Assembly (NCBI GenBank): GCA_010093815.1
Contig: ML996578.1
Source: Pseudovirgaria hyperparasitica
Lineage: Eukaryota
DNA length: 64,000 nt
Strand: one strand, 5' to 3'
The first letter of the stretch is position 1. Each line of letters begins with the position of its first letter. The notes beneath the pieces are model-generated. The model was not told the origin of the DNA and did not search any database. It was given only the letters and a program-made list of their open reading frames with translations. The position numbers and the translations under genes were made by a program. Shown one piece after another: positions 18,551 through 44,621 of the stretch.

Positions 18551-18682
18551 TATGGGATTCCTATTAGGTAATCCCCGTTACTTAGATCTTATTCAGCGTT
18601 AGGCTAGTATATATAGTACTTAGATAGACTTAGTAGACACGTTAATTAATTTTACCACGTCTAATTTACTAAAGTTCCTATA
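18551..18682 (+). repeat. 5' LTR
   Basis: TATGGGATTCC...AAAGTTCCTATA. It matches 49605-49736 with only transition differences; the de-RIPed ends are TGTGGGA...TCCCACA. Confidence 0.95.
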
Positions 18683-20450: not shown

Positions 20451-22513
20451 TACTAATAAAAAAGAAATAAAAATATAGGACTATAAGTATATTAACGCTC
20501 TCTATAAATTATTAGAGAATACTTACTAATATTAAGAGGATTTAACGGACGCCGTTAACGACCGTCTTTATTAACTTAACTCTATTAGTAGATAGTTACT
20601 AGAACTTAAGGCTTATATAGAAGAGGTCTACCCCTAGAGAGTTTTAGTTCTTATTAACTATAGGGCTAATAGAACATATATATTAATAAAGGTTACTAGG
20701 CGCCTAAAGCTAGTACTATAACCTACTCCCGTAATACGTATTAAGCTTCCGTTAGGAGCCCTAATAATAAGTTAAGAAGTTATAAAAATCCCTCTTCGTA
20801 TAGAAAGCTTTATCTATAAAGTTTCCGTAAGGATACTCGACCTAAAAGGCTATAATTTAATCCTAGAATATAAATAGCTCTATAAATAGAATCCTAATAT
20901 ATTATAGAGATTATATTCCCTACTAATTAAAAGACTAGTAGTCTAAGGAAGGACTAAAGAGTATCTACTTAAAGGGGCCCCTACGTTAATTAATATTAAC
21001 TTATAAGAAGAGTAAGTACTAAATATCCTTACTACTAGCTAAGTACGGAAATAATATCTAAACGGCTATAAGTAAGGTATAATATAGTTTATTAGGAAAG
21101 ATAACCCTCCTATACTATAAGTACCTAACCTAATACTATAAACGGTTTTAATAGAGTACTAGAACGTCTTTAAGGAGAAGCTATCTAAAGAACTACCACC
21201 CTTAAGATAATAGAATTATAAGATAGATATAGAAGACGGCCGACCTATTAATAACGCCGCCTACTACCTTTTCCTAGAATAAATCGCTAAATAGTAGAAG
21301 TAGATATAGGAGCTTATTAAGTAAGGGCTTATCTAAGAATTAGAAAGTACCTAGGGTAGTCTAGTACTTTTCGTACCTAAACCCGGAGGTAAATAGTAAA
21401 TATATATTAATTATTAAGTACTTAATATACTTATACGTAAGGATACGACCCCTCTTCCGCGTATAGATAAATATCTATATATCTTCGGCTAGTTAATAGT
21501 ATTTAGTAAGATAGACTTAACCTTAGGGTTTTAGTAAGTACGAGTAGCTAACGAAGACATCTCTAAGACCGTCTTTAATATAATTTACGGTAAATATAAG
21601 TTTAAGGTAATACTATTTAGTCTATTAAACGCACCTACTATATTCTAAAAGATAATAAATTAAGTCCTTTAACCCCTACTATATAAATCCATAGTTATAT
21701 ACCTTAATAATATTATTATCTTTTCTAAAAATATAGAAGAATACGCTAGAGTACTATTAAAAGTACTTACTCTACTCCGTAAATACCGCTTACTTACTAA
21801 TCTAGAGAAATATAGCTTTAGCTAGACCGAAGTTAACTTCTATAGATACTACGTCTTATAAGGATAACTTCGCCTAATAAAGAATAAGATTAAGATAATT
21901 CGCGAATAGCTAGAGCCTATAAACGTTAGCGAAGTCTAATAGTTCCTTAGCCTAGCGAATTATTATTAGAGGTATATCTAGGGATTTATAAGTATTACCG
22001 TACCCCTAATAGACCTCCTTAAAGAAGTAGACCCTCTTATCTATAAGTAGAAGTATAGGCCTATTTAATAGATACTATTAACGGCATTTACCTTTAAGAC
22101 CCTAAAGAATACCCTATATTCTAAACTAGTTCTAGCTTAACCTAATAAAACTAAGCCCTTCTATATTAAAATGGATATAAGTAACTATATAATTAGTATA
22201 GTAATCTACTAGGAGAATCCTAGTAAGTAGTATTAGCTAATCGCGTTTAACGGACGAAAGCTAAATAGTACTAAGCTTAACTATCTAGTTCACGAAAAAG
22301 AACTCCTTACTATTAAACATACTCTATATACTTAGAGATATCTACTAGAAATAAAGAAGACGATGATTCTAACTAATTACTATAGCCTATAGTTCCTTAA
22401 GTCTATAAAGAAATAAGAAGGCTATATAGATAGATAGATTAATAAGTTCGGAAGCTTTAATCTCGATATAAAATATCGCCTAGAATCTAAGGCGGTAGTA
22501 TCTAACGCCATTA
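20450..22513 (+). pseudogene. pol, 5' part: aspartic protease, reverse transcriptase, RNase H
   Basis: VLINYRANRTYI (protease, LIDxGA-like) at about 20645; VLFVPKPGGK; FSKIDLTLGF*QVRV; VIYLNNIIIFS (YLDD) at about 21700; YLVHEKELLTI; and KAVVSNAI where the insertion interrupts it. Confidence 0.92.
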
Positions 22514-22557
22514 CATTAGGAAAGATACAGCGCTCCCAAGTACTTCTAAGTACTCCC
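22514..22557 (+). repeat. Left terminal inverted repeat
   Basis: CATTAGGAAAGATACAGCGCTCCCAA is the reverse complement of 44596-44621 with two transitions; weaker similarity extends to about 44 bp. Confidence 0.92.
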
Positions 22558-22649
22558 TAAGTATTCTTTCATCCCATTATATTCATCGGGCGGACCTACT
22601 TACTATCTATCCCAACGGGACGGCTTTATATAATTTGTACTAAGTATTC

Positions 22650-22784
22650 CGTTTATACCAAACGTCCCGTTTATACCGAACGTCCCGTTTATACCGAACG
22701 TCCCGTTTATACCGAACATACTAGTTATACTAAACGTCCCGTTTATACCGAACGTACTAGTTATACCGAACGTCCCGTTTATAC
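22650..22784 (+). repeat. Subterminal 18-bp tandem repeat (GTTTATACCGAACGTCCC) running into assembly gap 22785-23224
   Basis: About 7 visible copies. Confidence 0.9.
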
Positions 22785-23224
22785 NNNNNNNNNNNNNNNN
22801 NNNNNNNNNNNNNNNNNNNNNNNNNNNNNNNNNNNNNNNNNNNNNNNNNNNNNNNNNNNNNNNNNNNNNNNNNNNNNNNNNNNNNNNNNNNNNNNNNNNN
22901 NNNNNNNNNNNNNNNNNNNNNNNNNNNNNNNNNNNNNNNNNNNNNNNNNNNNNNNNNNNNNNNNNNNNNNNNNNNNNNNNNNNNNNNNNNNNNNNNNNNN
23001 NNNNNNNNNNNNNNNNNNNNNNNNNNNNNNNNNNNNNNNNNNNNNNNNNNNNNNNNNNNNNNNNNNNNNNNNNNNNNNNNNNNNNNNNNNNNNNNNNNNN
23101 NNNNNNNNNNNNNNNNNNNNNNNNNNNNNNNNNNNNNNNNNNNNNNNNNNNNNNNNNNNNNNNNNNNNNNNNNNNNNNNNNNNNNNNNNNNNNNNNNNNN
23201 NNNNNNNNNNNNNNNNNNNNNNNN

Positions 23225-25169
23225 GGCCTCGTGGTAGTCTATATAGTTCCCTAGCTATATACTAATATCCGACTTCTCTTAAAAGTATACACTCTTTATA
23301 TATAGGTTAAAGACCCGACTTGAACGTCCGCCACCATCTAACTTTATTTTAATTTAAGTATTGGTCGGGGTAGATAGACTACTAGTTAAGGTAGCTATAA
23401 CTAGGGATAATAAGTTAGTAATAGACTTATTTATACTACACGTATACATACTATTATTTACCGTTCCCGCGGTTACTTAGAGCGGGTCTATACTTAATAC
23501 CCGAGATGGTATAATCTTATCCGTAGCCACTACTAGTGGTATAGAACTCTCACCCATATCTAATGGCGTATAAGATGATTCGAGGCACTTATCTAACTGG
23601 TTTAGAGTATCCGACTCATCCTTTTCGTAGTAGTTAGTACCTATATAGCCTCTATAACTTTAGTATATACTTATATTACCCGATAGCTTAGACTCCTCGC
23701 TCTCGTCTAAGTCATCTATATCTACTTTAGAGAAGTTATCTAGGTTATCTTTATATGGGTTTATATATATAGTATCCGGGTCGATTAGTGTTAGTGCTAT
23801 AAATACCGATGCTATTAGTAATTTTTAAATATAGTCGATGCGGTAGGGCGCCTAGTTCGACCATATTAGGCTTAGCGCTCGCCATTCCTCTATATAATTT
23901 AGCACGCGATTAGATAAAGGTATATATATATACCTAGTATTAGTGGAGAGCGTGCGAATCTATAGCAACCGAAGGACGAGTTCGGCGCCCGCCCGCTACT
24001 ATATTCGTTAAGGGCATGCCTTATTATAATATATATAATAGTAATCGTGGATGGTAGGATCGGTCGGAATATACTACTATAGTGCTCCTTCGATCTAAGG
24101 AATCTTAGGGACTATAGTAGAACTAACTTTAGAGCCTTAATTACTACTAGCCCTACGAACATTTTCCGAGTTACGCTAGTATTATACTAATAATTAGTAA
24201 CACGTCTAACACGACGTAAGTAATATACCTTTACTTCTATATACGCGTTATTACGTATTAGGTTACTTATACTAGCTTTTCTCTTCTTAGCTATCTCCTA
24301 GTCCTAGTGTTCGGATACTATCTATCTAACTCTAGAGAGGAGTTAGTAACGGAAGTCCATTATATCTTCCTTTACTAGCGTAATAATATGGGCGGGAGGT
24401 GTGTTTTATAAATTATAATTAAGGTAGTAGCTACTAAGATTAATATCTCCGGCGGCTGTCTAGGCCGATTATACTAGTATCCTAAAACTATCTAGGCTAC
24501 TATCTAGCTATATATTAAGGCGATCGAATACCGGTAGTAACCGGCCTAAAAACGTTATGGCGATCGAAATCTCTATTATCGCGAGGTACCGGTCTCGTTC
24601 GTAAGGCTAAAGACTATCTCTATAGGACCGCCTCTTTTCACGGATAGTTGGTTCCCTCTCTACTACTATTTCTCCACCTTCTTCTATCGAGCTAGATAGC
24701 TAATATGGTAGAGGAGAGGACGTAAGGCCGTTATATCCCCGGTTACTATTATAGTAGAATGTTACCGTGACGTCTAAGCTATATAGGGCGTTACTACCAT
24801 ATTCGCTACCGGTATACCTAGACTACTAGGTTATTAGTAGATAAACGAACGCGTCGAGATAAGCTAGGTATATATATATACGTTTTTTATGTCGATGGCT
24901 GTCGTGTAAGTCCCTATTATTAATGCTAATACGTGTCTACATTATATCGTATCTTTGTTTACCTATCCTATTTAGTTTACTATAGTTACTAGATTATCTT
25001 CTATTAGTGTTACCGCTACGGTAGCTAGATAGTCCCTTAACTATCTTCCGTGTTAGAGGTCCTATAGAGAAGATATATAAGAGATTAGTAGATATTTTTA
25101 TTAGTAATAGGTCGGTAACCTACTAGGCGATAATATTAGGTAGCGGGATAATAACTAGCTAGTAGACAT
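23225..25169 (-). pseudogene. Possible RIP-degraded cargo ORF of unknown function, divergent from the transposase
   Basis: An ATG at 25169 opens a frame with protein-like segments (KKVEKIVVEREPTIREKRRSYRDSLLALRTRPVPRD). No family motif was recognised. Confidence 0.3.
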
Positions 25170-25440
25170 GATAAAGGTTTAGGCGTAGACTAATATAGTA
25201 TTTTTATAGACGCGTGATACTTACGCGTTATTATTAATAATTTTAAGCGAGCGTATATAGGAATCAAGGGGCTAAGAGCCGGGTAGAAGTTGGGGGTTAG
25301 TGGGTATATATCGGGCTTTCGACGGGCTTACACCTAACTTCTTCCGGTATACGCCTAGAATATCCGCCGTATACCGTATTATTACCATCTACTAATAATT
25401 ATACTATGGTATTTTTCCTTTATAGTAACTACACCTCGAG

Positions 25441-28400
25441 ATGCCACGGGCCGTAGTCTCCTACTAATACTATAGTAGAAAGATTAGTAGTATATACTAT
25501 ATAATCCATAGGCACTATAACTCGGAACCGTATAGACGAGCACGGCTTGCCGCATCGCTATTATTATTATAACTATTAGGCCCGTAGCTACCACTATTAA
25601 CTAGGTCATAGCGCGGCTTTAGTACTCGTAGTTATATTAGTCGATAGAACTCTTTAGTTTGCTCTATTAGTGTTTAGCCGTCGAGCGTTAATTAGGAGTC
25701 CGAGCCTATAGAATTAGATACTTCTACTACTAATATTACCCTATATAAAGATACCACTATTTTCCCTAATCCTATTTCGGACCTAGAATCTATGGATAGT
25801 GTTACTAGTAGCTATAGTACCGATTTAGTATGTTAGTCTAATATATATAGTAGAAATGCTATATCTATAGCGACGAGGGCGTCTAGTACTATATATTCAA
25901 TAAAAACGTTCGAAGAGGAGAGCGGTATATATATTATAGTAGACTAGAGTAGACGTGATAATCCGTCCGACGTAAGTATATATAGTCTAGGTTTATAGTA
26001 GTAACTAATTTAGTAGGCCCGATTCGGTTAATTCGATAGTAAGTTTATAGAGCGCCTTATAATATAGACGAATCGGTTTGGTATTTCGAATGTAGTATAC
26101 GATAAATTAACTACTATCCTTAAATAGACTTCCGCTATACCCCCTAACCTTTTTATACTAAAATCTAATATCGTGCGTAAGTAGTTATTATACTACCCTA
26201 AAGGGATACCGTACGAAAGTTAGTAGCGTAGCTACGATATATTCGGCACTACCATAGTCGAATACTAGTATAGGGATCCGCTTATATTAGTGGAATTCCT
26301 CCTTAGGTACCGACCGTTCGCTAGTAAGCTCGTGTTTAAGCCGGTACGATAATTTACTAGTTTAGGCGACCGGGTATATAGTAAAGCCTACATAGTAGAT
26401 GGTTAGTAGGATATACACGCTACTATTCCGGATGGTGCCGTTATCGTCCCTATTATTTTATCTTCGGATAAGATAAACCTTACTAACCATAGTAGTAATA
26501 GAGTAGTATGGCTAGTCTACCTATCTATTTATAATCTACCACTAAACGTCCGCTTATCTAGGAGTCTACTATTATTTCTACTACTTGCTCTATTACTAGT
26601 AGTTAAGCTAGAAACGGTAGCGAATCGCTTTATGTTCCATTAGGTTATGAGTAAAGTTCTAGCCTATATATCCGCCTATAATAGAGTCGTTAACTATACT
26701 AATTATTATATAGTGTTATAGGCTATATAGAGTACTAGAGTATTAGTATTATATACCGATGGCGGCTCGCGTAAGTACTATCCGCGTTTAGCTTTATATA
26801 TTATAGATTTTCCGGAGTAGGTGCTTATCACGGGTGTATCCTATCGGTATACATATCTAACATATATAGTCCCTAGTAACAGACGACAGTATCTACGAGA
26901 AGCCATTACTAGTATATAGAAGTTCCGCACACACTCGTCGTTATAGGAATAGATTTACCGTATACATCGCCAGTTAATAACTAATAGCCATAGTAGCGAG
27001 TACACTAGTAGTAAGACAGATGATAGGATAAGTATACCCGGTGTCTTATCGTTTTCGTCGACGTCTTTCGCGCTAGTAGTATAGGGCTATTATATTCGCT
27101 AATCGGTTAAGAGTCGGTATTCTAGTAGGTGGATAGAGCCATTAGATAATTTCGCCTGGTTACTTACTAGAGTTAATATACACCGCGCGGTCGCTCCGGA
27201 CATTCTACATTAACTATATAAGGGCATATTAGAACACACGTTTAATTAGATAGTCTCGCATGTTATTAATTAAGAGCGTACGGGACATAAGTTAAAGGGT
27301 GTATTTACTAGTATACCCCCTATAGAACGAGTAAAGAAGGCGATCGATAAGCGATTCGCGTCTATTAGGGTATTTAGTCGTCATAACCTACTTATATATA
27401 TAACTTTAGTAATATAATGGACGGGGGCAATGTTTAAGCGTATACTAGTAGTGTTTATAGTCGCGTTTAAACCGCTCCTATGTCATAATCGACACTTCCT
27501 AAGCGTAGTACGGGCGGTTATTAATATATACATGTTAGCGGCGTACTATACGCATGATACGTAGACACTAGTATACTTAGAAGAGGCTATATTACGCTTA
27601 GACGACCTGAAATACTAGTTTATACTATATTGTGGAGATAAATCAGAGGATAATCATTTTAACTTTCCGAAGTTCCATGCATTATCGCACCTGGTCGATG
27701 CCATTAAATACTATGGTTCGTTACATCTAATGTCGGTAGAGCTACTAGAGTAATCTTATATTATAGTAAAGGAATTATATCGAGGTTTAAATAAGAGGGA
27801 GACGTTTCTATAGTAGATGCTAGTAGTAGATATACGCATAATAAATACTAAAATCTCTAGTAGTATAGAGGTGGCGGCTAGTACTAGTATATTAGTAGCC
27901 TCTAGCCTAGAGTAGCTCGATAATACACGTAAGCTGGTCGGCCAGCGGCGTATTCTAAAGGAGCCACGCCGGAGTAAACATATACTCTACGTCTTATAGA
28001 GCCATAGACTATCTACGTTCTACTAGACCACCGTTAGCGACCTCTACGACGTATATAGTAGTAGTTTCATGTTACTTAATATAGTTACACCCTTTATACG
28101 TAACTGTTATAATCGGCTTATTAGGGATAATATATTAAAAGGTATAAATATCGAATGTATTAAAAAGGACCCTTCGTAGGCACGGGTCCTTTCTATCTAT
28201 ATATACGAGACCATGTACGTGCCGATACGACTAGATAGAGACTATAAATAGACGAAACGTGACCGTAGCGTTAAAACACGGGCGCGTATCGTAAGTCTAT
28301 CGCTGTCTACCGCCGCCTACCGTAGTATACCGGCATATGCCGGCATATGGCGGAAGTTATAGTTTATATATAGTAGCACTCGATAGTCGTATCCTATACT

Positions 28401-28710
28401 AGGATATCTCTAAGGAATAATCGTGGTTTATTGCGATCGGTTCTATAAAAGGCTTATATTTAATAACTATCTATAATTTTAGCTAAGGAGTATCTAGGGA
28501 TACACCTCCTTATTACCTAATAATTACTAGCTAGTATAAAAACTCTACGCCTCTAAAAGGGGTATATAGAACTTAAAGGATCCTCATTCACGGATAGAAC
28601 TAGACGCGGATAGTATTAACCTAATATAGATAGATTATATATATTAATACCCTAAAATCCGAACTATGTCTCTAGGCCCACTAGACCTAGCTCATACCCG
28701 ATTCTAATGT
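25441..28710 (+). pseudogene. Plavaka-type transposase, RIP-degraded
   Basis: VIVPIILSSDKINLTNHSSNRVVWLVYLSIYNLP (about 26440-26545); RKYYPRLALYIIDFPE*VLITGV (about 26770-26840); APDILH*LYKGI (about 27190); HFNFPKFHALSHLVDAIKYYGS...VKELYRGLNKR (about 27655-27800). There is a possible N-terminal Cys/His finger. Ends are approximate. Confidence 0.88.
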
Positions 28711-29699
28711 TTTTATTATTCGCGTTTATGCCTCGTTAGATGCCGGGCATATAATAAGTCTATGGTTAAGTAAGTGTTAGGTACGTGACGAGTCTATTAA
28801 TGAATGAGTGCCGGGTATGTAACGAGTCTATATGAATAAGTATGAATGAGTATATACCGGGTATATAACGCTCTTACCAGGGAAACGTCTTCCTTAAGTA
28901 TCTCCCCCTCCTAATATTTCTCCTCCTCTTTCTTTATTCTTTCCCTAGCCTTATAAGTATAGTTAGACTTATATCGCTATATTATCGATATGTGCGTTCT
29001 TATATAGACCGTTAGAAACTACGGTAACTAGATGTACGTTCTCGTGATAGATAAATATACCGCACTAATGCGTCGCATTATTCGTGTTTAATATAAGGGT
29101 TCGCTACTACGATCATTCGTCGTTACGCTCGTCTATCTCTTCTTAATAATAGTACTAATCGATAATAACCTATTATAGAGATGATAGTTAGTATTACGTA
29201 CTTCTCTTAAATATTCGCATGTTAATATCGCATGAGCATATCCTTCGCGGAGGTCCTCTATCCTTCCCTTAAGCTACCTAGACTATCCCCTAATCGCTAA
29301 AAACTCTTATATCTAACTATTTCTACTATTTATTCCTCGGTTCTACTCGTTAGGCTTCGAACGACAGCGAACCACGATAGATTAGCGGTTATCTATATTT
29401 CGCGTACGCCGAGTTAGCATGCCTGAATATAATAGATAATAGTGTGTTTATAATAGTATATACTAGATCTTATAGTATTCCTCTTTAGCGGTAGATCCAC
29501 GTGGTCGTAAAGACGGCCTACTATCCTATCGTGCCTACATACTACGCTACTCTTTTATTATATATAGACGGTATTACTAGAGTAGGGCTATCGCCCGGTA
29601 AACTTAACGTTATATATAGAGTATTATATATTTAACGTCGTTATTTCACGTGCCCTATGTTAGTGCGGGATCGGATGCCGGCCGTATATTTCCCCGCCT

Positions 29700-31700
29700 C
29701 TATTAAATTAACGAGTTATTACTAAAAACCATGTAGACTACTCGCGTTAATATAGCCGTAACGTACGTGTTATACCTACGCCTATTATATAGTGTACATG
29801 TCTCGTCTCTCTATTACCCTGGTAATATATACTATTCCCTATTCCGTCTATCTATAGCTACGTCCGGCCAGCCGCGAATAAATAGCCGAGTAGAAGCGAG
29901 TCTCGACCTACTTCATATATTCAGAGCGTCCGACAGGTAGAAACTTCGGGTATACATAGAAGAGTTAATTTAGGAGGAATTTACTAGCCTATTACTAAAT
30001 CTACGTAGTAAGGAAGTGAAGGACCACCATATAAAACAAGAGTATTACCTATAGACGGTCGCGGATAAATGTATATTTATTAACGGTAGTTATACTATTT
30101 CACGGGTAGATGCCATATATTAACTTAATACTATATTCTTGGTATTTACGCGTAACTAGCGGCGGTTAGCTAAATACCATCATATACGTTAAAACGATGC
30201 CCCGGGCTAGATAAGCCGTCGTAATATTATATATACCCTATAAACCCGCCTAATATATCTAGCTAACCTAGTTATTCGACCGTCGGACTACTAGTATCTA
30301 TATCTCCTAAGGTAGCCGTGCCGCCGTGTTATATACGTATGCCTATAGTCCTTATCCGCGATCGTACTCGGGTCACCCTAGTACTAATAACGGCTATATA
30401 GAATGGCATAACGCCGTTAAATGTTAAGGGTGTAAAAATACGCGATATAGTAGGTCTTAGTATAAATAAACTATTAGAATTTATTAGCTCGTCTATAGAT
30501 ATACTAGGGGACGTAGGCGGTTATAGGCATGGTCGCGTCTACCTAGAGTACCTAATCCTACTAAGCGAGTTAAGTGATATAATCCTTCGTAAGGATAGTT
30601 TAGACTAGATGTTATAGTAGGCTATTAAATAGGCACTAGGCTTAGGACTAGATCGGGTGGTTTTCCGCGTAGGCGATATAAATAGTATATTTAGAAGCCT
30701 ACTATAACGTATTAACTATAATCTAACCATATAGAAACGTCGCGCTATGAGTATAGTAGTAGGATTTATCTATCTAGCGCGCGTAGGTAAGCTCGAGATA
30801 TATATATACCGATAGATATTGGTATATATCGATATGTTGCGACTACTAAGCGGTGTATACCGATATATGCTAGCATATCCGGTATATACCGGTATAATAC
30901 CGTCGCTCTTCCGTGGACATAACACCATTTATATATCTTAGGTTTTCGGTTATCGGTTACGTATAGTGTTATATATATAGCGGATACCTTACTAGATTTA
31001 GGTCTTTCATCGATAGTATATAGGTACGCCCTAGTCTACTCGATATAGGCGTAGTCGACGCTTTACCTACTTAAACGATAGACGTTAATGACGACGCGAC
31101 TAGTATATTTACCTATTATATTATTAGCTAGCTAACGTTATATTAGGAGAGTCGAGCGCCGCCGTCCTACCTACTCTACCTATCGATGTTAATATGCTAG
31201 CGATTATAACCTAATCGCCTTACGAATCGATATATAATGCTAGTATACTCGAGAGTTCGAGCGAACGTATAAAAGTCTAATATTATATACTATTTAGGGC
31301 CGGGAAGGAAGCGCCTACCGGCGTAGTAGTCATTAAGGCGATAGTGGAAGTCTATATATAACTAGACATACTAAGTCCGCCTCCTTCTTATATGGTCCTA
31401 TTACTAGATAATATTACTAGTTTCGATATTACGGGAGAGGAGTTTATAGACACGAACCCATGAATATTAGTATAACATCGGCTCGATAGTACGTATTACA
31501 GCATAAGGCAAGTTATATTTAAGCGGTAGTTAGACATGTACGCTAGTATACTAACGGATATATAGTATCTCTACCATGAATAGAATAGGTAAGGCATGGC
31601 TAGTAATATCTTACTATCTAGAAGAGATAGTTACCGTAGAATTTAGAAGATAGGCTCGGCGTCTATGGCGTTAGTATATCGGACGGTTGAACTTTCATAT
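29700..31700 (+). pseudogene. Possible RIP-degraded cargo ORF of unknown function
   Basis: Long protein-like frames (MPIVLIRDRTRVTLVLITAI.NGITPLNVKGVKIRDIVGL...) and a candidate GTAAGC...TAG intron at about 30787-30941. No family was recognised. Confidence 0.35.
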
Positions 31701-32131
31701 AACACTATTCACTTATACCTATATTTACCTAAGCCCCGATTCGATAGCCTTCTATAACGTACTATATACTCGGTCGGCGAGCTACTAGACTCATATAATA
31801 GTAGTATACTACCCCACTTTATATACTGCTTAAGCTACTATTACTTTAGCCTACGTTAATCTTAGCTTCCTTTAGTCGTCCCTGTGTTATAAAAGAAAAC
31901 TTCTATAAACCTTTCCTCTACTTATCTTGGTTTTTAAACCTAAATCTTACCTTCTATACTTTATTCCGTGTTAATTACGACTATATACGAACGCTACGTC
32001 GAACTCGACTCTATTAACCCTTAAGGTCCATTCTATATAATAGTTAACGAGGTTATATTTATAGTTTATAATATGGATCAAGAACTCGTTATATTTGGCG
32101 ATATTTAGGACTAGTCTACGCTCGACGTAAT

Positions 32132-32500
32132 TGAGCCTTACGTTTAAGCCGAGTCTTACGTTTAAGTCGAGCCTTACGTTTAAGTCGAGCCTTATACTTA
32201 AGTCGAGCCTTACGTTTAAGCCGAGCCTTACGTTTAAGTCGAGCCTTACGTTTAAGCCGAGCCTTACGTTTAAGTCGAGCCTTACGCTTAAGCCGATCCT
32301 TACGTTTAAGCCGAGTCTTACGCTTAAGCCGATCCTTACGTTTAAGCCGAGCCTTATGTTTAAGCCGATTCTCACGTTTAAGTCGAGCCTTACGTTTAAG
32401 CCGATCCTCACGTTTAAGCCGATTCTTACGTTTAAGCCGAGCCTTACGTTTAAGCTAAGCCTTACGTTTAAGCCGAGCCTTACGCTTAAGTCGAAGCTTA
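32132..32500 (+). repeat. 18-bp coding tandem repeat, about 20 copies (de-RIPed EPHVQA/V)
   Basis: GAGCCTTACGTTTAAGCC units in frame with the ATG at 32073. Confidence 0.9.
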
Positions 32501-35500
32501 CGATACGACCACCGTCTTAACCGATAATAAACCACTTATCTTTAGTATACTTACCGGTAACTACCGTCCTAACGACGAGTATAAACTTAAGAAGGTCCAA
32601 AGTAGTAAGGCTCCCGTTCCTACTTACGCTATCTATTAGATCTCTCTTATATAGAGCGATCTATAGTTAACCTTTAGGAATGTCTATAGTATTAGTAGAG
32701 AAATAGATAGACTTAAGTAGGAATAAGCGAAAACTCAAGCCGAGCTTAAGCTAGTAGTATTTAAGGCTCGTGGTAAAGGTCACGGCTTTAAAGAGTCGAT
32801 TAGTTGTATATATAGATTCCTTGAATTCCCTGAGTACCGCTCTTAGATTAAGTTGCGTGCTCGCTTCCGATGGATTAATAAAGGGAAATCGGTATCCTTA
32901 ATAAGCTTACTCCGCTTTAATCGTACTAATATTCTTCTATTATCCGACCACCCTACGGTGTAGATCTTTAAGGTTAAGTAAGTAGGCGACTTTATTAAGT
33001 ATTTTCCTAAACTTCCTAATCTTATTATAAGCAAAGCGGATAAAGCCAATATACTATATATTAACACCGGCCTCTACGAAGACCCTCGCGACTTTTAGGT
33101 TATTAAACTTATAGCTAGCGAGCTTCTTAGTATAGGTTTTACTATCCCGTTATATATCGGACCCGATATAATACACGAACGAGTGAAGTAATTCTTCGAA
33201 GATCTAGGTACTTATACTATAGTTCGTATCTTGCTACCGCTACGTAACCCTATGGATCTTACCGGCTTTAATAATAAGCTTAAACTAGAGAGCGATCCGA
33301 TTAATTCATGGTATATAGAAGTTACTACTCCCCATATATAATACGGTATAATAAGTAGGCCGGATACTTGGCCCTAGATCTCTATTCCCTACCGCGAGTC
33401 ATTTAATAAGAAATTTAACTACCTAATATACATCGCTATAAGCACCTTATAAGATGAATAGACGGATCTCCTATTATTCTAATTCCAAGACATTACTATT
33501 AGATATATCTAGCTCTTAGGTGTTACTCGGGCGCTCTTAGCTATCGTCTATCCCATTAATGCGAAAGGATTCCATCGCATGGAACCAGGTAGTCGTGGGT
33601 ACCTTAAAGTAGATTCAAAGGATTATAATAACGACGCGTACCGCTTTAAAGTCCTTCGATTTCGCCTAGGCGTCCTCCTATTCGAATGCCTTACTCTAAA
33701 AGTCTTTAATAAGGTTAGACGTCCTCCTAAAGCACCTAAGGTACCGATTATATTAATGGATACGGTTACTAATATAACTCGAGCTCGTCCTAAATATTTT
33801 ATTCGGACTAGCGATACTAGTTTAAGTACGATCGGGTCGTCTCTTATTACGCTTATAGAATTCACGGACGTTCCGGCTTTAGTTAGCGTATAAACCTATA
33901 ATAAGCTTACTAAGTAACGCATTAATACGTGCTAGAAACTAACCTACCATACTATATAAGCTCCTAGAGACGGTGGCGTAGACGACCACGCTACTTAGGA
34001 TGCGTTTAATGTGATGGTCCTTAATGTTATCGTAGACTTAGTATCTATGTCTCTAATGCATGGGTCCTCTAACCCTAATAACGAGATTCTAGATTATAGT
34101 ACGGAGCCTTAGGATACCCTCATTACTCTTTCTAAATTATCTATATCCCTAGATAATAATAAGAACATGAATATAGAACATAGTCACGATGTTATTAGCG
34201 ACGAAGGTTCCATTACTAGCCCCGTCGCCGATATATATACACTCCTAATATTGTCTAAAGTCCACTCTAGTATCCTATCCCCTTTGCCACCCTCCGTATA
34301 GGACCTAATACTTAGTAATAACTACCTAAATCTTTAACCCGTCGACTATAACCGCTACGTTAAAGATTATGAAAGATTCTACGATCTCTAGAATATCATA
34401 CGTTCGGAGCTATCTCCCTAATAATAGTATACCTATATATAGGCGACGGACGTACTTAGGGCTTAGTTCCTACTTCACGGCTGTAGAGGAGCTAGGAAGA
34501 GCTATTTATGGCTTCGTCTACTACTAGCTACACTTCTAATTAACGAAATGAACGGTGCTCCTATTATCACTCATACTACTAAGGTAGTTATCCTATCTAG
34601 CGATGTGATAGCGTACCTCCCTACGCTAGGTTCCATCTAAATATATAGGATATATATATATGTTATTATCGGCCTAACTAACGAAACCTACGACGACGCT
34701 ATAAGAAAAGTATATAAATATATAAGTAATATATTTACTCGCTATAAGTCTCTAAAGACACCGGTCGTTCTTCGAAGATGCCCCGAAGCCGTTAATCGAG
34801 AGGTTTTCTTTACTATAGCTAGACTATCTTATCGCGGCGACCCTCTTATCGGGCTAACCTAGGATGATATAATAGGCGGTGCCATCCTTACGTAAGTCTA
34901 GGCCGACCATAGTAAATGACTATCGGAATATAGCACGGATCCCCGTGCTCGTCTATAGAAACTATATACCGGTTACGTTGCGCTTAAGGTCGTTAGACTC
35001 GTTAAATCTCGATACTAATACGAATGGATCCCTAAGAATTTCGAGAAAGAAACGGCTCGGCTATTACGCGCTATCTATAAACGTTACGCTCGTAATAAGG
35101 ACATGCCTAAGGAGGAGCATAATAGGATGAACGAGCTATACCTCGCTACCTAGGACCTAGTTACCATCCACGCCTAGATTCATGTAGGGACCCTATATAT
35201 TATGAATATCGCCAAGGTAGCCCGTAATATATATCCGATTTTGGTCGTAATAGAAGAGGCTACGTGTATCCTTAAAAGTAATACACTTAGGATTATCGTT
35301 AATTACACTACTATGGAATAGTAACCGATATTTATTTACGTCGGCGACCTACGCTAGCTCGACACCTACTAGCGTGATAGTACTAATATATAGGCCGCGA
35401 ACTAGAGGATCTCCTTTATAAAGCGCTAGATATAATATAGTTTCCCGACTACTCGCCTTACCGAGTTAGAACGCTTAGTTCCTAGAATAATAAACGTTAT

Positions 35501-36489
35501 ATCGCTAATTACTTACTTGGGCGAGCTAACGACCTCGCCCTATATAACGAATGATATCGATATACTACTCGCAGAGACCGTTCGATAAATATTTAGAATC
35601 CGCGGCTATTGATACGTTATATACGCTAACATCGACGGGGATCACGTGTACATAGTAAATAACTTAATATATAATATAGACTTATTGCGTTTCACTTAGT
35701 GGATTATCACCGAGCTCTTCTGTTATAGCGTTGCACTTAATCGCGTGCTCTATATTTCTATATACGCCGCCTAACGTAATCTGTTTAAAGGGATAGTTAG
35801 GAACTCGCTTCTAACTATACTTACCGCAGCGGATAAAGCTTAATTTAATGCCCTACCTAAGCCGGTATAGAAGCTTATCTAATAGCGTTCATAGAACGGT
35901 TCTTAGGGTTATAATAACGATATAGTCCTTATCGATCCGGTCTAAACCAATCGCTTCGGCTTCCTCTCGGAAGTAAACCATAACGTCGTTACTATTACGC
36001 GCGCTAAATAGATAATGGTTATTATCGCTAACTTCGTATCTCTTAAGAGGTAGAAAGTCCTAGACGGCGTACTTGGCGAGATATAGAATAAGTGCTCTAA
36101 GATTCATACGATATACACGTGCACGACCCCCGACCTAGATGGTCTCCCTCTACTCTCTAACATGCCTAATCCCTAATACGGTCGCCCTATACTTAGTATT
36201 AGAGAGAGGGGAGAACGAAGCGATTAATAAACTACTAATAGTACTAAGCCCCGTAAGCCGCTAGTCTACCGTAAATATAACGTTAAAGGATATAAGTCTA
36301 TTAAGTATCTAAGAGGGTCGACACTTATATATAATAACTATTAGGACATCGGCCATAAAGCTAATGTTTACCCTAAACCCAAGACGCTTACGGGTACGTT
36401 TTACCATAATTATAGAACTACCAGTTATACTCGGCGTTATTATCCTAGCCGCACTAAATTACCAGCACGCATAAATAGTAATAATCTAG

Positions 36490-36580
36490 TTAATACTACT
36501 AGAGCTAATACTACTAGAGCTAATGCTACTAGAACTAATACTACTAGAACTAATACTACTAGAGCTAATACTACTAACGA
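36490..36580 (+). repeat. 15-bp coding tandem repeat (TAATACTACTAGAGC), about 6 copies
   Basis: Directly visible at the C-terminal end of the helicase. Confidence 0.8.
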
Positions 36581-37590
36581 AGTAACTACTAGCGGCTAGG
36601 ACGATAGAGACTACGAGGATACCGGCCGAGACGGCGGTGTTATAATATATAAAGACATGGAAGTCAATTAGTAATAGTATATAATTAGACTCACGTGTTA
36701 GGGCTACTTAGTCACGGCTTCTTAGTAAGTATACCTCTGTATCTATTTTAGTTATAGTTACGATATCCTACTAGGTAGATAGTTTAGCTCTATTAAAGAC
36801 CTATTAAGGGTATTTCTATTACGTTTACTCTAGTATAGACGCGCTATTAGATAATACGGCGCTACTAGGCACGTTAACTAGTACCTACCGATTAAGAAAT
36901 AAATATAATTCTATATCTACCGTGAGCCCCGGCCTAATAACGTAGGCTTCCTTTAGTTATCCCCTTTATACTTTTAAAACTACTTCTAGCCTTTATATTA
37001 GGAGATATTACTATCTAAAGAGAAAATATAAAAAAACATACGCCCTAATTAAAGCCTCTACCTTTAGACTTTAACTATAATATATACGGGATATAGTAAA
37101 CCTAAATATCGCGTACTTTAAAAGCATGGAAGGATACGACACTCGAATACGACGAAATATAGGCTCATAATACTCGGAGAGTACCTAGGGATAAGCATAT
37201 GAATATAAAATGGAATAAGACTAACGCGGCACCTCGTATATGCGTAGCCATGTGCCGTCCTAGACGTAGTTGCCTACGATATAATATTGCGAGATAAGAA
37301 TCATGGCTATCTAATTCTATTAAGGGTATTAGACGACATAAAGTGAATAACTACACGCCCGACCACGCCACGCCAAGTTACGTGCGTGTTATAAACGCGT
37401 GTTCGAGGAATAATAAGGATATAAACGAGGTTCACCTAGTAGGTGCCTCGTTATTCCGGCTTCTACCTCTATCGTCCGACCTATACCTCCGTCTTCCTTA
37501 CGCCCACGATATACTACGCGTATACTATATAATTAGTCCGTAAATTATAAATACTATATTAACTACACACGTTAACTACACACGATTAAC

Positions 37591-40500
37591 ATGTCGAATC
37601 CGATTCTATAACAAAGTAACCGTCCGAATATAGTAATTACTATAGTACTACTTCGTATCTTAAGCCTAGATATATAAGTAAAGCGTGAAGCTATGGAGGC
37701 GCGTATAAGGCAGCTATATATAGAAGTATATACGGCTACTCTACTCGTAGACTATGGACGTCGAACTAAGAACGAGCTCGGCGTAAAAAGAGTACGTAAG
37801 ATTATTAATAAGGTAGCGGGTAAATTCCTAGTAGTATAGGAAAGAGTAGTAGAGTGTATAGAGATAAAGGCGCTATACCATATCTATAACTAGGTACGCA
37901 CTATAGTATAGAAAACCGTATATTATAGAAAAACTATCTCCGAGTATAAGAAGAGGCGCGTAATTATAGCCCTATATCCCACGATCTTATAATCCCCGCC
38001 TATTACGACCTTATAACCTCCGCCTATCGCGACCTTATAACCCCCGTCTATTACGACCTTATAGCTCTCGTATACCACGACCTCATAGCCTATACTTATA
38101 GCGGTTCTATAGCCTACTAACGTATATACTACGAGAAAAATCAAATTCACGATTAGGTTTAACGATAACGTATTCCTCGAAATACTAGTACCTACGTCTA
38201 ACTAGTAGAAAGACTATAGCGACGCTTCGTGTGTTAATTTAGTAGTATTTATATGGCGAATTAGGGTCTAATACGTAATAAAGACTAGGAGGGCACTTAA
38301 CTAGAGCCGTACTACTATATATTCTATCGTGCTAGTAGTCGAGTATATAATAAGTAAAATAGAACTAGAGGTAGATATTAGATGGCTCCTATAGTTAGCA
38401 ATCGAATATATCCTAGAATATAGTAATAGTATAATACTCCTCGGCCTTAGATAGGATATAGATGGTATACCCGAAGTAAAACGAAATATAAACCAGCGAC
38501 TAACATATAATAGCATAGATGGCTATATATAGGTTACGCTCGAATAAATCCGCCCCTCCGTCCCTAATACTATACTTACTATAATTAGTATAATAATAGT
38601 AATAGAAAGCTACCGCCTATGACGGTAGAGATACCTACGGAGATAGTATTATAGGTAGTAGATAGTATTACCTAAACGACTTAACCCTTCCTCTAGTAAT
38701 ACTATATATACTACTATCGGCACCCGGGAAGTTGCGAGACCAATCTATAAGCTCTAAAGATAGTGACTTCGAAAGCCTTAAAAGCACCTTAGATATAGAG
38801 GATATAGATATCGCTTTTAAAGACTAATAGAATAATAAAAAGGGTGCTAGAGGCAGTGAGAGTAGCGTACGTACTTGGCTAAGGCGATGCGATCCGACGT
38901 AAGACGGCTTCTACCTACTATATATCGGTATATACCCGATTCTACTAGCTATATAACTATGGTGCACATGTTCGGTTAAGACGTTACGACACTAGTATAA
39001 GCCGGCGTCTATCTAGTTTACGTCGGGATACGCCCGGTCCTACTAGCTATATTATTACTACGACTATAATCGTATAAGATCCACTCTAATAATTAAACAT
39101 TTACTTATATACTTCACTTCCTCCGCACTTATCGAAATTACGTTATAATTACTAAACGCGGCGACTTAACTCCTACCGCCTAAATCTAGTTTTCATATCT
39201 TATCGCCATTAACGCCGTCTTACTACCTATGGCCTAAGTCATATATAGGAATAGATAGATATAATAAGAGTCATGACTATCCTAGTTTAACTACCGGCCA
39301 TAGAATGGCTAACTATGACACGCACATACGACGTGCAGAGGCCTTAAGCGTTAGCGCCCTCCTACCTTATATCTAGTACCTCCGAGGCCTATACCTAATA
39401 CCTAAAATAAGTTATAATATATATAGGGCTACTATTATTAAGATAGTAAGTAAAGAAGTAGTAATAGAGCTTGAAACTAGTAGTATAGATACTACTATAC
39501 TCCATAGGATAGTTAAGGAAACCATTACTAGAGAATTTAATTAGCATATCGCGGCTATAAATGGTAAGTTAGTACCGATGGTTACGACCATAGATATAAC
39601 AGAGGCTAAACTAGATATAGATACTATAGGCATAGATACGTAGACATAGTTACCGCTAGAACATAAGGAGAAAGATAATGTGGAAGATACTAAAATGGAA
39701 GACGACGTAGCTAGTATGCTTAGACATATATATATATATACGGTCCTAGATACTAACATTATCGGAGTAGTATCGAATACAGGCGCGGTTATAACCACTG
39801 ACATAGATAATCCACCTATAAATATCATCGTGCCTAGCGAAGCTTATCCACGCGTAAACATACTAGCCATAGAGATATAGTTATAGTTGCCGCCGGAACA
39901 TACGGAGAAAGAAAACGTGGAAGATACTAAAATAGAAGACGACGTAGCTAGTATACTTAGATATATATATATATATATATAGTTCTAGATACTAACATTA
40001 GAGTAGTATCGAAGATAGGTACGGCTATAACTACCGATATAGATAATCTACCTACGAATATTATCGTGCCTAGCGAAGCTTATCCACGCGTAAACACACT
40101 AGCCATAGAGATATAGTTATAGTTACCGCCGGAACATGCGGAGAAAGAGAACGTGGAAGATACTAAAATGGAAGACNNNNNNNNNNNNNNNNNNNNNNNN
40201 NNNNNNNNNNNNNNNNNNNNNNNNNNNNNNNNNNNNNNNNNNNNNNNNNNNNNNNNNNNNNNNNNNNNNNNNNNNNNNNNNNNNNNNNNNNNNNNNNNNN
40301 NNNNNNNNNNNNNNNNNNNNNNNNNNNNNNNNNNNNNNNNNNNNNNNNNNNNNNNNNNNNNNNNNNNNNNNNNNNNNNNNNNNNNNNNNNNNNNNNNNNN
40401 NNNNNNNNNNNNNNNNNNNNNNNNNNNNNNNNNNNNNNNNNNNNNNCCATAGAGATATAGTTATAGTTACCGCCGGAACATGCGGAGAAAGAGAACGTGG

Positions 40501-43500
40501 AAGATACTAAAATGGAAGACGACGTAGCTAGTATACTTAGATACATATATATATATATAGTCCTAGATGCTAATATTAGAGTAGTGTCGAAGATAGGTAC
40601 GGCTATAACTACCGATATAGATAATCTATCTACGAATGTCGTCGTGTCTAGCGAAGCTTATCTACGCGTAAATATACTAGCTATAGAGATATAGTTATAG
40701 TTACCGCCGGAATATACGGAGAAAGAGAACGTGGAAGATACTAAAATAGAAGACGACGTAGCTAGTATACTTAGACACATATATATATATATATAGTCCT
40801 AGATACTAATATTAGAGTAGTATCGAAGATAGGTACGGCTATAACCACCGACATAGATAATCCATCTATGAATATTATCGTGCCTAGCGAAGCTCATCCA
40901 CGCGTAAACATACTAGCCATAGAGACATAGTTATAGTTACCGCCGGAACATGCGGAGAAAGAGAATGTAGAAGATACTAAAATGGAAGACGACGTAGCTA
41001 GTATACTTAGACATATATATATATATATAGTCCTAGATACTAACATTAGAGTAGTATCGAAGATAGGTGCGGCTATAATTACCGATATAGATAATTCCCC
41101 TATAAATACCGTCGTGCCTCTAGATACCGGCGAGACTTACCTACGGCTGCTAGAAATAAAGAGGACACTCTTGGATAATATAGTAAACCTAGTCGATTCT
41201 CCGAAACGCCTAAAACTAGAATATATTATACTACTAGATGTCGACTAGTAGACATATGAAAACCAGGAACTGTTCGGGTTAGTAGATAATTTATATAGTA
41301 GATATATATCGGATAGTACATTAGTGAACGGCCTTGACTTTAAAATCCTTTCTATAGACGACGACTCTAACGGAGATGAAGTAAAGCTAGATATAGAGAA
41401 CTTAATTCCGGTAGATAACGATATTAGTACGAAACTATAGAAAGCGTAAGTTATACTAAGAAGTAAGTAGGAATATACACTACCATACTAATATACCTAT
41501 AGAATATTCGCCGTTAATAACTCCGATAAAGTAGTCTAAGCTATCTCTTATTATACGGAAGAGATACGGTCACTTACTATAAGTATATTTAGGCTTACGC
41601 TAGACGACCTAATAAAGGAGTTCAGCCATACACCTACTCTATATCCAGCCTTTAGTATAAGTAGGTTATATAGGCTATAGGCCGGCCAGTTACTCGCGGT
41701 AGTTACTATATTTAAGTAGCGGGCGGGTCCGTGGAAGTGCTAGATCTTAGTAGATAGCCTAGGGCTAGGGAAGATAATCGTGCTTATAACGTTCATCCGC
41801 CTCGCGTTTTATTAGGACTTTCTACGCGATAATATAGAACTTAATCTAGGAAATTATCTATAACCGACTTAAGACTCGGGCATAGATAGGAAGTACCCGA
41901 TATAATCTCTGCATCCGATTAAATGTCCGTGTAGCTAGACTAATGATTTCGTCTATATGCCCCGCCTTTAAGGACTATTTATACTATGCTACCTAAGGTC
42001 CCTTCTAATAGCGCATTGGCCGTAGCGCTTTAAATAGATGTATAATAATACGGATAGTATGTTCACCGATTAAATCGATAAACGGAACCTAATAAAGATG
42101 ATAGTACGGCTAGCGTACTCGAAAACCCTTACCGACGCCCCTAGTATCTAATAATTCTCATATATAGACCGATAATACTTAGCTAAGAGATGCCCACACC
42201 CCGAATGGGAATATAGCGTCGATATTAGTAATACTACTAAATTCGAGACCGACGAGGAGTGTATTATTAGGGCATGGTCGATTCCCGTTAATAGGACCGC
42301 TACCACCGAATTTCCGTCACGATACACGAAGAACCATATAATCTATAGCACCGTCTAGAGTATAGAACCCTAATATCTTAAATCTTTTAAGGGACGCGTG
42401 GTTATAAGAGTAAAGAGGGCGAAACAATTCGGTACTAAAAACACTTAAACTTGCGAAGTGGCATTCCTCGGTATATTAATGGTAGACGAGTTCCATTCTA
42501 CAAAGAACCCCGATATAAAACAGTATAAATATGCGATATATAATGCCCTTATATTTAGTATATAGGTTAGTGTAACGCCCCTCTCGAATAGTCTAGTAGA
42601 TATTCTAGCGGCTATTAAGGCAGGTGCTCTAGATAAGTTACCCGACTACGTCGACGATAATACTACTAAAAGGGTATTCGAGAGCCTATAGAATAAAACT
42701 ATAAGGAAGATTATTATAACGTGGTCGAATAAACTCCTTAGTTTAATAAAAGGCAAGCCGGTGGATACGATGGCCGCGATAGTCCGTAGGGCATTAGAAA
42801 CCATAGAAGGTAAGTGCACACTACGTATAGTAGCCGATTAGTATTTACTATTCGTCCTATAACGGGGACTACTAACTAAATGGTTTAATGGAGAGGCATG
42901 TCTATCTACGACATTAAAGCTAGTAGTAGAGTTTATATCTATCCCGGCTATAGAACTAGAGAAGATAATCGTACGGTCATACGAGAATAGAGGTAGATAG
43001 TTTAATAATCCATAGCCTAACGGAACGCCGCGGGACTTATAGATATAATCTACCGCCTAGAGTAAATCGAAAGGGGGTACCGGGTCCGGGCTCAACGCAT
43101 ACTACCATTAGGCCAGGCTAGCTACTACGTGTATACTACTTATATACCTTACCGATAAAAAGATAGAAGACGAGTAAATTAATATCACGCTCACGCGTCG
43201 GAGGGATGGTAATAATAGTATACTAAGTAAGATAATTACCAATCCCGTACGCGAAGCGCTCCTATAGCTAGATAAGGCTATACGAAAGAAGATAGTATCG
43301 CTAGCTAATAAACACGCTTCGAAGGTAAACTAGATCCGTAACTTTATTAATAATAACGTTTATAATAAAAGTACTAGACGCGCGCGATGAATATCCGCCG
43401 ACCGCCCGGAGAAAATTATACTCGCATATACCGTACCGGTAAGCTTGATGTTCCTATACTTAGTGAGTGTTTATACTGCCTACTAGTAACGTAATTTACT

Positions 43501-43970
43501 AATATATATAGGTACTACGTCCATATGTATAAGCGAAAATATTAGTATATTTACTAGCCGGCCTAAGTATGTCCGAATCAAATAAGGTATATAGATTATT
43601 TAGGTCGACTAAGTCGGATTCTCCGTGTATTCTACTAGTATTAGCTTCGTAGGTCTACGAAGGATAAGACCTAATAGTCGCCGGTTTTATAGTGTTAGTA
43701 GACTAATGCTTACATAAGGAGACGTGGCCGTAGGCAAGTATAAGACATTATCGCCATAGATAATATCGGCCTATAGTATATGCGTATACTTTAATTTTAG
43801 ACTATTTAGAGGTCGAGGCTAGACTCGCCGCGTTAGGTAAGGTAATTGAAAGCACGAGGACATAAGCCTTAGACCTAGGAAAAGGAGATATAGCTACGGT
43901 AGAGATAGCCACACCTAATATACTAGTAATAGGCGTACGCTTTAATCCTATAGAGATATAGTAGTATAGA
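37591..43970 (+). pseudogene. SNF2/SWI2-family (SF2) ATPase with long repeat-containing N-terminal region, RIP-degraded
   Basis: ILVDSLGLGKI (motif I, about 41744); MVDEFHSTKN (42485); SVTPLSNSLVDI (about 42570); RPEKIILA; DLIVAGFIVLVD...P*ASIRHYRHR*YRPIVYAYTL (motifs V-VI, about 43665-43790). Whether 37591-41400 belongs to the same gene is inferred. Confidence 0.82.
39620..41120 (+). repeat. About 234-237-bp tandem repeat, at least 6 copies, spanning gap 40176-40446
   Basis: Unit starts at about 39680, 39917, 40153, 40497, 40731 and 40967. Each translates to a roughly 78-aa acidic unit (VEDTKMEDDVASMLRH...). Confidence 0.92.
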
Positions 43971-44114
43971 AGTAAGTAAGGTAGTCGGTTAATTAGCTTC
44001 TAAGAGACTAGATAGCATGGTAGTATAAATATAAACCGCTGTTTACTCGTGATAACATGTCTATATATATCTATACATAAAGAGAAATAAGATATTTATT
44101 CTATACCATTATAT

Positions 44115-44595
44115 AGTAGGACGTTACTATATATACCGGCATACAACGGAATATTCCGACATACGCCGGTATATTATAGGATATTCCTAGATACTCGAAG
44201 TATAGTCGTAGTATAAAGTAGCATTACTATTATATGCCGGCATATAGTAGAACGTTACTACATATGCCGGTATATAACGGGATCATGTTCTAATATACTA
44301 TACGCCGCCGGTATATTATAGAATATTCCTAGATACTCGAAGTATAGTCGTAATATAAAGTAGTATCGCTATACTATGCCGGCATTTAGTAGGACGTTAC
44401 TATATATGCCGGCATATAACGGGATTAAACGTTTTCTTAACGTTCGATAGAACGATTCTAAAAGAACCAGGACGGCTCTAGGAGAACTAGAACGACTCCG
44501 GGAGGACTAGGACGACTCTAGGAGGATTGGGATAACTCTAGAAGTACCGGGACCCATTTAGGATAACTTTAGAAGTACCGGGAGACCTAGAAGCA
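44115..44595 (+). repeat. Right subterminal repeats (about 130-bp units rich in ATATGCCGGCAT, then 20-bp GGAGGACTAGGACGACTCTA-like units)
   Basis: Directly visible just inside the right TIR. Confidence 0.8.
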
Positions 44596-44621
44596 TTGGG
44601 AGCGCCGTATCTTTCCTGATG
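44578..44621 (-). repeat. Right terminal inverted repeat
   Basis: TTGGGAGCGCCGTATCTTTCCTGATG at 44596-44621. Confidence 0.92.

Follow-up and report, generated by a model that had tools for sequence, protein, structure and literature searches.

The 64-kb window analysed here, that is, the whole stretch of 64,000 nucleotides taken from contig ML996578.1 of the Pseudovirgaria hyperparasitica assembly GCA_010093815.1, contains a 22-kb element (window positions 22514-44621) that is quite probably one dead copy of a multicopy cut-and-paste DNA transposon of the PlavakaB type, cargo included, in an ascomycete with active repeat-induced point mutation (RIP). The element is bounded by terminal inverted repeats (TIRs) and a duplicated TA, and it lies within the pol gene of a Ty3/gypsy retrotransposon. 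It carries the relics of a Plavaka transposase, of a predicted UPF1/ZNFX1-like superfamily 1 (SF1) helicase and of a probable SNF2-type ATPase (Table 1).

A single insertion within a pol gene

The excision of positions 22514-44621 together with one TA restores the Ty3/gypsy Pol exactly at the junction ...DAL|SRRPDF. The left flank is aligned to an intact Pol (P0008) through residue 677, ending in '...VPDAL', and residues 678-683 of P0008 are SRRPDF; the right flank opens with SRRLDF, in frame from the A of the second TA, and continues in the same frame into the integrase. Because Pol is restored by removing the element and one TA, this TA is a 2-bp target-site duplication. Window positions 22514-44621 are thus one insertion, which took place in a single event at a TA within pol. 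Related to this, one contig of the second of two sequencing runs (X1 and X2, described below) tracks the left flank to 22513 and then departs from the element, as would be seen in a gypsy copy that lacks it.

The inverted arms (22512-22539 and 44596-44623) are 28 nt long including the TA and are 93% complementary. Without the TA, the TIRs of 26 nt match at 24 positions, and both mismatches are transitions, as RIP produces. A RIP-degenerate pattern of the TIR has two matches in the window, which are the two ends of the element, whereas 0.02 would be expected. The right end reads ...CCTGATG and the left end CATTAGG, a single C>T away from CATCAGG. Inward of the TIRs, the subterminal motif GTACTTCTAA is common to both ends, and repeat arrays are present at each of them. 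The units measure 18 bp at the left end; the right end (44130-44541) has a 20-bp and a 142-bp array. The original prediction had put forward the paired TIRs, the 2-bp TA duplication that repairs the host frame, the subterminal arrays at both ends and the arrival of the whole 22 kb in one event, and all of these are borne out.

The insertion lies in an AT-rich block of 32 kb (~17.5-50 kb), whose GC content is 0.27-0.40 as against ~0.5 outside. Between 18 and 50 kb the dinucleotides carry the signature of RIP, with TpA/ApT of 1.4-1.9 (~0.7-0.9 in the flanks of the block) and (CpA+TpG)/(ApC+GpT) of 0.03-0.42 (1.0-1.4 in the flanks). Directly left of 22513 the gypsy Pol is recognised by the Pfam families RVT_1 (E 9e-13) and RT_RNaseH_2 (E 7e-19). 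A direct repeat at 18551-18678 and 49605-49732, with copies 94% alike and 31,054 nt apart, likely represents the long terminal repeats (LTRs) of this host retrotransposon; without the insertion, the starts of the two LTRs would be ~8.9 kb apart. The index (CpA+TpG)/(ApC+GpT) is 0.25-0.38 in the element and 0.03-0.06 in its gypsy flanks. The lower degree of RIP in the element fits a later insertion into DNA that was already degraded and rich in TA, and the near exhaustion of CpA/TpG sites in the gypsy sequence indicates a host that is older, or has more often been subjected to RIP, than the Plavaka copy.

Transposase, accessory genes and copy number

Pfam scans were carried out on six-frame translations in which stops were read as X. 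The transposase relic matches PF18759 (Plavaka) with an E-value of 6.1e-33 and 114.8 bits, well above the gathering cut-off of 26.3, over profile positions 41-322 of 325. Four basidiomycete Plavaka proteins were found to be related to it (22-29% identity), and its best database relatives carry PF18759 as well. Among the columns that are invariant in the four proteins, 17 of 31 are kept in the relic and 6 more could be reached through C>T or G>A changes. Two invariant C columns align to T in the relic, a comparison that RIP blurs; a Y-x-x-Y found by eye lies one residue from these columns, and C>Y changes through G>A could account for them. The assignment of the element to the Plavaka type is supported by these sequence comparisons, and the Plavaka transposase that had been proposed is present.

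Plavaka transposons have been divided into PlavakaA, with ends TGT..ACA, and PlavakaB, with ends CATCA..TGATG and duplications of 2 or 3 bp (Kojima 2025, PMC12730594). Judged by its CATCA..TGATG termini and its 2-bp duplication, the element is of the PlavakaB type.

Several other classes of mobile DNA were considered and rejected. Starships are giant cargo elements of Pezizomycotina, moved by a DUF3435 tyrosine recombinase known as the 'captain'. The element resembles them in being large, in carrying cargo and in belonging to the same fungal subphylum, but it has instead a DDE transposase, TIRs and a 2-bp duplication; DUF3435 gave no match in the six-frame Pfam scans at E<=0.01-0.05, where RIP lowers the sensitivity. 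A Helitron does not agree with the presence of TIRs and a target-site duplication or with the absence of Rep and Pif1. Two Plavaka copies joined in a composite would not be compatible with the absence of inner TIRs. En/Spm (CACTA) transposons have short TIRs starting with CA, inverted subterminal repeat arrays, more than one gene and 3-bp duplications. The element shares with them a transposase of a related DDE clade (CMC/CMCT; PMC12730594), TIRs that start with CA, inverted subterminal arrays and the possession of more than one gene. En/Spm proper was discarded because the ends are CATCA and not CACTA and the duplication is the 2-bp TA and not one of 3 bp; besides, no TnpA-like Pfam match was found in the element.

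The number of copies was approached through contigs of the two runs, both from one sample, which were compared with positions 22300-42299 at a likeness of at least 80%. The contigs that fit number 15,428 for X1 and 7,928 for X2. By likeness, those of X1 fall into 5,259 at 99% or more, 4,591 at 95-99%, 4,372 at 90-95% and 1,206 below 90%. Their differences from the window comprise 1,116 transitions (C>T 410, G>A 407, A>G 146, T>C 153) against 11 transversions, X2 being similar, and the alternative letter at a single site is carried by up to 23 different contigs. The element therefore belongs to a multicopy family whose copies were nearly identical before RIP. In bins free of N gaps and of the 236-bp array, the summed depth of X1 is 14-27 thousand, whereas a single listed contig has 170-340, a sum that differs from a copy number and is read only as 'tens of copies'. 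The depth is similar over all 30 bins and has no step between the left end, the transposase, the unannotated parts, the SF1 gene and the first part of the SNF2-like gene. Cargo and transposase are repeated to the same degree. The original prediction had derived a multicopy family with fixed accessory genes from the uniform RIP; the multicopy part stands on the contigs and their transitions, and the fixed linkage would be consistent with the flat depth.

The gene at 32073-36149 is supported as a UPF1-like SF1 helicase by several sequence matches. AAA_12, the C-terminal RecA lobe, is recognised on the plus strand at 35445-36032 (E 9.3e-07, 29.0 bits, Pfam cut-off 27), and AAA_11, the N-terminal RecA lobe with the Walker A, has no Pfam match in the relic at E<=1. 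A Walker-A-like G..G.RKS can be read by eye near 34467, and motifs II and VI lie near 35244 and 35982. Comparison with PDB structures gave ZNFX1 (9q9z_A, E 1.1e-4) and yeast Upf1/NAM7 (E 1.2-1.8), aligned over motifs II-VI, and the IGHMBP2 family is matched with an E-value of 5e-4. A word-indexed homologue search with the relic found nothing, which is explained by RIP probably destroying shared words. The proposal of an SF1 RNA helicase is upheld as regards SF1 and the likeness to UPF1 (AAA_12, ZNFX1, Upf1), and it loses the word 'RNA' because the family includes RNA and DNA helicases. The N-terminus of the gene holds an in-frame array of ~20 hexapeptide repeats of 18 bp (32133-32502). The repeat reads E-P-Y-V-stop-A, in which a single C>T change separates the stop from Q. 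In one contig 76 nt of the array are missing, so the number of repeats may vary among copies.

In SNF2 ATPases motif I has the form GLGKT, motif II DExH..KN and motif III TGTP.QN. The relic at 41600-43897, which is probably an SNF2 gene, shows LVDSLGLGK(I) at 41744, MVDEFHSTKN at 42479 and SVTPLSNS ~30 codons beyond motif II, and the spacing of motifs II and III is SNF2-like. A composite pattern of motifs I-III, chosen after the sequence had been seen and hence post hoc, occurs once in the six frames of the element and in 0 of 1000 dinucleotide shuffles. The profile and database searches give the identification no statistical support: no Pfam family is matched at E<=1 (so that neither the SNF2-related N-lobe nor Helicase_C is recovered), none of NCBIfam or PADLOC at E<=10, and no protein among 1.84 billion at E<=0.001 (phmmer), the sole PDB match being CHD1L with an E-value of 2.1 over 48 residues across motifs II-III. 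A single-sequence AlphaFold2 model of the relic (mean pLDDT 33.1, pTM 0.21) is unusable. What remains of the proposed SNF2 ATPase is accordingly the order of motifs I-III in one frame; support from profiles, structures or databases amounts at best to the CHD1L match. At least five units of the 236-bp repeat precede the gene. As a further observation, tandem repeats that share the frame of the gene stand ahead of each ATPase, with units of 18 bp for SF1 and of 236 bp for the SNF2-like gene.

The transposase, SF1 and SNF2-like genes are all on the plus strand, every gene in the element is broken by C>T/G>A changes and stops, and the RIP indices are even along its whole length. The palindrome TATRCCGGYATA also builds the right subterminal repeats (44132-44416). 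All 10 of its occurrences in the window lie inside the element, the expectation being 1.42, and none of 100 shuffles gives as many; the internal sites are intergenic, in three places. These palindromes are candidate protein-binding sites. Two parts of the element, 28.3-32.0 and 36.2-39.6 kb (~7 kb), have no recognisable content in any frame. In this DNA the stop-codon density of a frame is no guide to whether it is coding. No six-frame Pfam match to the Tet_JBP dioxygenase was found, in a scan whose sensitivity is lowered by RIP and with these ~7 kb unread. Near the left end lies the relic of a DUF6532-domain gene; DUF6532 has been listed beside Plavaka, KDZ and CxC2 among the domains of some Ganoderma species (PMC8955403).

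The genes outside the AT-rich block are ordinary fungal genes, with products that include a Myb-domain protein, a mitochondrial carrier and ARS-binding protein 2. Positions 1-1000 of the window are again AT-rich (GC 0.34) and adjoin GC-rich genic DNA; they are perhaps the edge of another RIP block.

Table 1. Features of the 22-kb element and of its host retrotransposon (window positions)
Feature	Position	Strand	Remarks
Host Ty3/gypsy retrotransposon	18551-49732	+	heavily RIP-mutated; pol split by the insertion at 22513|44624
TA target-site duplication, left copy	22512-22513		from the sequence of the ends and the Pol frame repair
Left TIR CATTAGGAAAGATACAGCGCTCCCAA	22514-22539	+	paired with the right arm
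Left subterminal region	22540-22784	+	GTACTTCTAA motif, then 18-bp array (22649-22784, 7.6 copies) reaching N gap 1
N gap 1	22785-23224		440 N
DUF6532-domain gene relic	23971-24402	-	PF20149, E 6.9e-07, 29.8 bits (cut-off 24)
Plavaka (CMC/CACTA-related DDE) transposase relic	25900-28230	+	single frame, many RIP stops; Pfam core 26248-27243
Palindrome TATRCCGGYATA cluster, internal	28326-28347		further clusters at 30856-30896 and 38921-38932
UPF1/ZNFX1-like SF1 helicase relic	32073-36149	+	one frame of ~1,359 codons without frameshift, ~4 kb
236-bp repeat array	39627-41109	+	flanks N gap 2 on both sides; final unit reads in frame into the SNF2-like gene
N gap 2	40177-40446		within the 236-bp array
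Probable SNF2-type ATPase relic	41600-43897	+	motifs I-III in one frame
Right subterminal region	44130-44595	-	142-bp and 20-bp arrays with TATGCCGGCATA palindromes, GGTACTTCTA motifs
Right TIR, reverse complement CATCAGGAAAGATACGGCGCTCCCAA	44596-44621	-	paired with the left arm
TA target-site duplication, right copy	44622-44623		from the sequence of the ends and the Pol frame repair

Unity of the 22 kb and other readings

Several results weigh against a single 22-kb transposon with its own cargo, and they concern both the assembly of the window and the occurrence of the cargo elsewhere. The order of left end, transposase-SF1 block and SNF2-right end rests on scaffolding, since none of the contigs listed spans an N gap. 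The sample of X1 and X2 is probably the source of the assembly from which the window comes, the summed depth does not give a copy number, and the contigs (~100-200 nt) are too short to link the cargo with the transposase in other copies. Besides, at 28241|28242, just 3' of the transposase, other copies of the family diverge structurally: 10 contigs (6 of X1, 4 of X2) match only from 28242 on, and the 24 nt of unlike sequence that precede this position in them occur nowhere in the window. Two further joints, 25482>35864 (one contig per run, with 21 nt on the short side) and 39620>40672 (within the array of 236-bp repeats), have too little behind them to be interpreted.

The scan of metagenome contigs with an alignment of the four Plavaka proteins, which yielded 80 loci (485,536 nt), also counts against this unity. 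The transposase of the window matches all 80 loci by tblastn, whereas the SF1 gene, the SNF2-like gene, DUF6532 and the six-frame unannotated parts match 0 of 80. On the 15 longest loci, Pfam recognises no helicase or SNF2 domain, nor DUF6532, in 95 of the 102 open reading frames (ORFs) of at least 170 aa; the other 7, those of locus L055, were left out because their coordinates match those of L051. An exact TIR scan of the metagenome contigs gave 0 matches. As the metagenomic loci are without the cargo, this is not a general feature of Plavaka, in a test that the short flanks make weak; the comparison suggests that the cargo is lineage-specific.

Judged by these shared coordinates, locus L055 looks like a duplicate of L051. 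Two of the 15 longest loci, L051 (6159-9093) and L061 (3204-4616), have a Pkinase_fungal gene immediately upstream of the Plavaka transposase and in the same orientation; it may be an accessory gene of these elements.

Two other explanations can be proposed for the window. In the first of them the ends are real and those of one insertion, and the three pieces separated by the gaps (to 22784, 23225-40176 and from 40447) come from different copies or repeat families; the length of 22 kb and the set of transposase, SF1 and SNF2 genes would then not belong to one physical element. Such an effect of scaffolding would be favoured in a highly repeated family, in which mis-scaffolding is easier, and by gaps that both lie in tandem arrays and are unbridged among the contigs listed; nothing is common to the two sides of gap 1, which are tied by family logic alone. 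On the other hand, the transposase and the SF1 gene are on one unbroken contig, no gap separates the SNF2-like gene from the right TIR, and the outer flanks are one gypsy copy. The same 236-bp repeat family stands beside gap 2 on both sides (89-94% identity), the palindromic motif TATRCCGGYATA is common to the middle and right contigs, and depth and RIP level are even over all three pieces. With this evidence a scaffolding construct is considered unlikely.

It has also been considered that one or more unrelated helicase-bearing repeats later entered a Plavaka of ordinary size (~22.5-28.3 kb together with the right end), in which case the cargo would be foreign to the design of the transposon. 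This would agree with the cluster of subterminal-type palindromes at 28.33 kb, right after the transposase, with the copies that break off at 28241|28242 and with the cargo missing from the 80 metagenomic loci. Nevertheless, a nested origin of the cargo is very unlikely, since the depth has no step at the borders of the modules, the three large genes are on one strand and the element's own palindrome is met again among the cargo genes, at 30.9 and 38.9 kb. Nor does the search for foreign insertions favour it: the RIP-degenerate pattern finds no inner Plavaka TIR in the window, the 25 longest inverted pairs include no convincing pair of internal ends besides the outer TIRs, and the six-frame Pfam scans give no reverse transcriptase, integrase, tyrosine recombinase or second transposase inside the element.

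Known relatives and possible role of the cargo

The PlavakaA and PlavakaB families have been reconstructed from Agaricomycotina, the accessory gene noted being a TET/JBP dioxygenase, and a supplement of the same paper has 0 occurrences of 'helicase' (PMC12730594). The element has in common with PlavakaB the Plavaka-type DDE transposase, the CATCA..TGATG termini and a duplication of 2 or 3 bp (here TA), and it differs in its RIP-active ascomycete host, in its length of 22 kb, in its SF1 and SNF2-like genes and in having no Tet_JBP match. Plavaka has been described in another ascomycete, the Chinese white truffle (Tuber), where it likewise has TIRs and 2-bp duplications but a 5'-CATAC-3' TIR motif (PMC12581995).

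Giant Plavaka families of 17.4-19.1 kb are known from the red algae Bostrychia moritziana and Chondrus crispus, with three accessory genes and adjacent repeat arrays, and they occupy a third of one red-algal genome; these genes, PAG1-3, correspond to an unknown protein, an N6-adenine methylase with SET, and a ParB with a 2-oxoglutarate (2OG) oxygenase (bioRxiv 10.1101/2025.02.11.637652). The element resembles them in its transposase, in its size class, in its several accessory genes, in the tandem or inverted repeat arrays beside an accessory gene, and in a high number of mostly degenerate copies. It is distinguished by helicases in place of PAG1-3, by a host of another kingdom and by decay through RIP, which is not the cause of decay in the algal elements. 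On the other hand, AcademH and KolobokH are cut-and-paste TIR transposons that encode helicases (PMC10799480). These are also of the DDE type and place a helicase beside the transposase in fungi, but their transposases are of other superfamilies and their helicases are SF2 DEAD/Helicase_C proteins instead of the UPF1-like SF1 and SNF2-like pair.

The type of transposon, the CATCA..TGATG ends, the presence of Plavaka in an ascomycete and giant Plavaka elements with accessory genes are therefore already known. Among the papers searched, none describes a cargo of helicase or SNF2 genes in Plavaka or En/Spm, and a 22-kb Plavaka in a RIP-active ascomycete with a pair of helicase and SNF2-like cargo genes looks new. 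The original prediction knew of no described family with this architecture and left its novelty to be confirmed by a search; this view seems to keep its force for the cargo and for the RIP-active ascomycete setting and, given what PMC12730594, PMC12581995 and bioRxiv 10.1101/2025.02.11.637652 report, overstated the novelty otherwise.

In the history proposed for this PlavakaB-type family, the DDE transposase would bind the TIRs and the subterminal repeats and excise the full 22 kb, and reinsertion would proceed through a 2-bp staggered cut at TA, with the pol gene of a Ty3/gypsy element that RIP had already degraded as the landing site of this copy. The two ATPase genes would be accessory genes of the whole family, gained before its amplification, and not a private capture of this copy. 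The family would have expanded in a burst to tens of near-identical copies, and RIP would then have riddled all genes with C>T/G>A changes and stops. As for the role of the ATPases, it may be speculated that they counter silencing based on chromatin or RNA, or that they help to mobilise so long a DNA; the TET/JBP gene of basidiomycete Plavaka and the methylase and oxygenase genes of the red-algal giant Plavaka offer a parallel.

Hrr1 and SAD-3 are fungal relatives of ZNFX1 that act in RNA silencing. The ZNFX1/UPF1-like helicase and the SNF2-type ATPase might form an element-encoded module of counter-defence or chromatin access, enabling the spread to tens of copies despite RIP and RNA silencing, a proposal that is held to be rather unlikely. 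If true, the TET/JBP of basidiomycete Plavaka and the methylase and oxygenase of red-algal Plavaka would be joined by this module as a third solution, reached independently, and the module or the transposase would bind to the TATRCCGGYATA palindromes that lie at the right end and among the genes. An intact copy would turn the two genes into testable candidates for anti-silencing functions encoded by a transposon.

From the point of view of annotation, the family probably makes up a sizeable share of the AT-rich blocks of this genome, and automatic tools could easily misclassify it. Giant cargo elements of filamentous ascomycetes are now discussed almost solely as Starships, and the element would represent, in these same fungi, a route to mobile DNA of 20 kb that depends on a DDE transposase. 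Plavaka recurrently occurs with genes related to epigenetic silencing, such as TET/JBP in mushrooms and methylase/SET and ParB-oxygenase in red algae, and two nucleic-acid motors would broaden this pattern.

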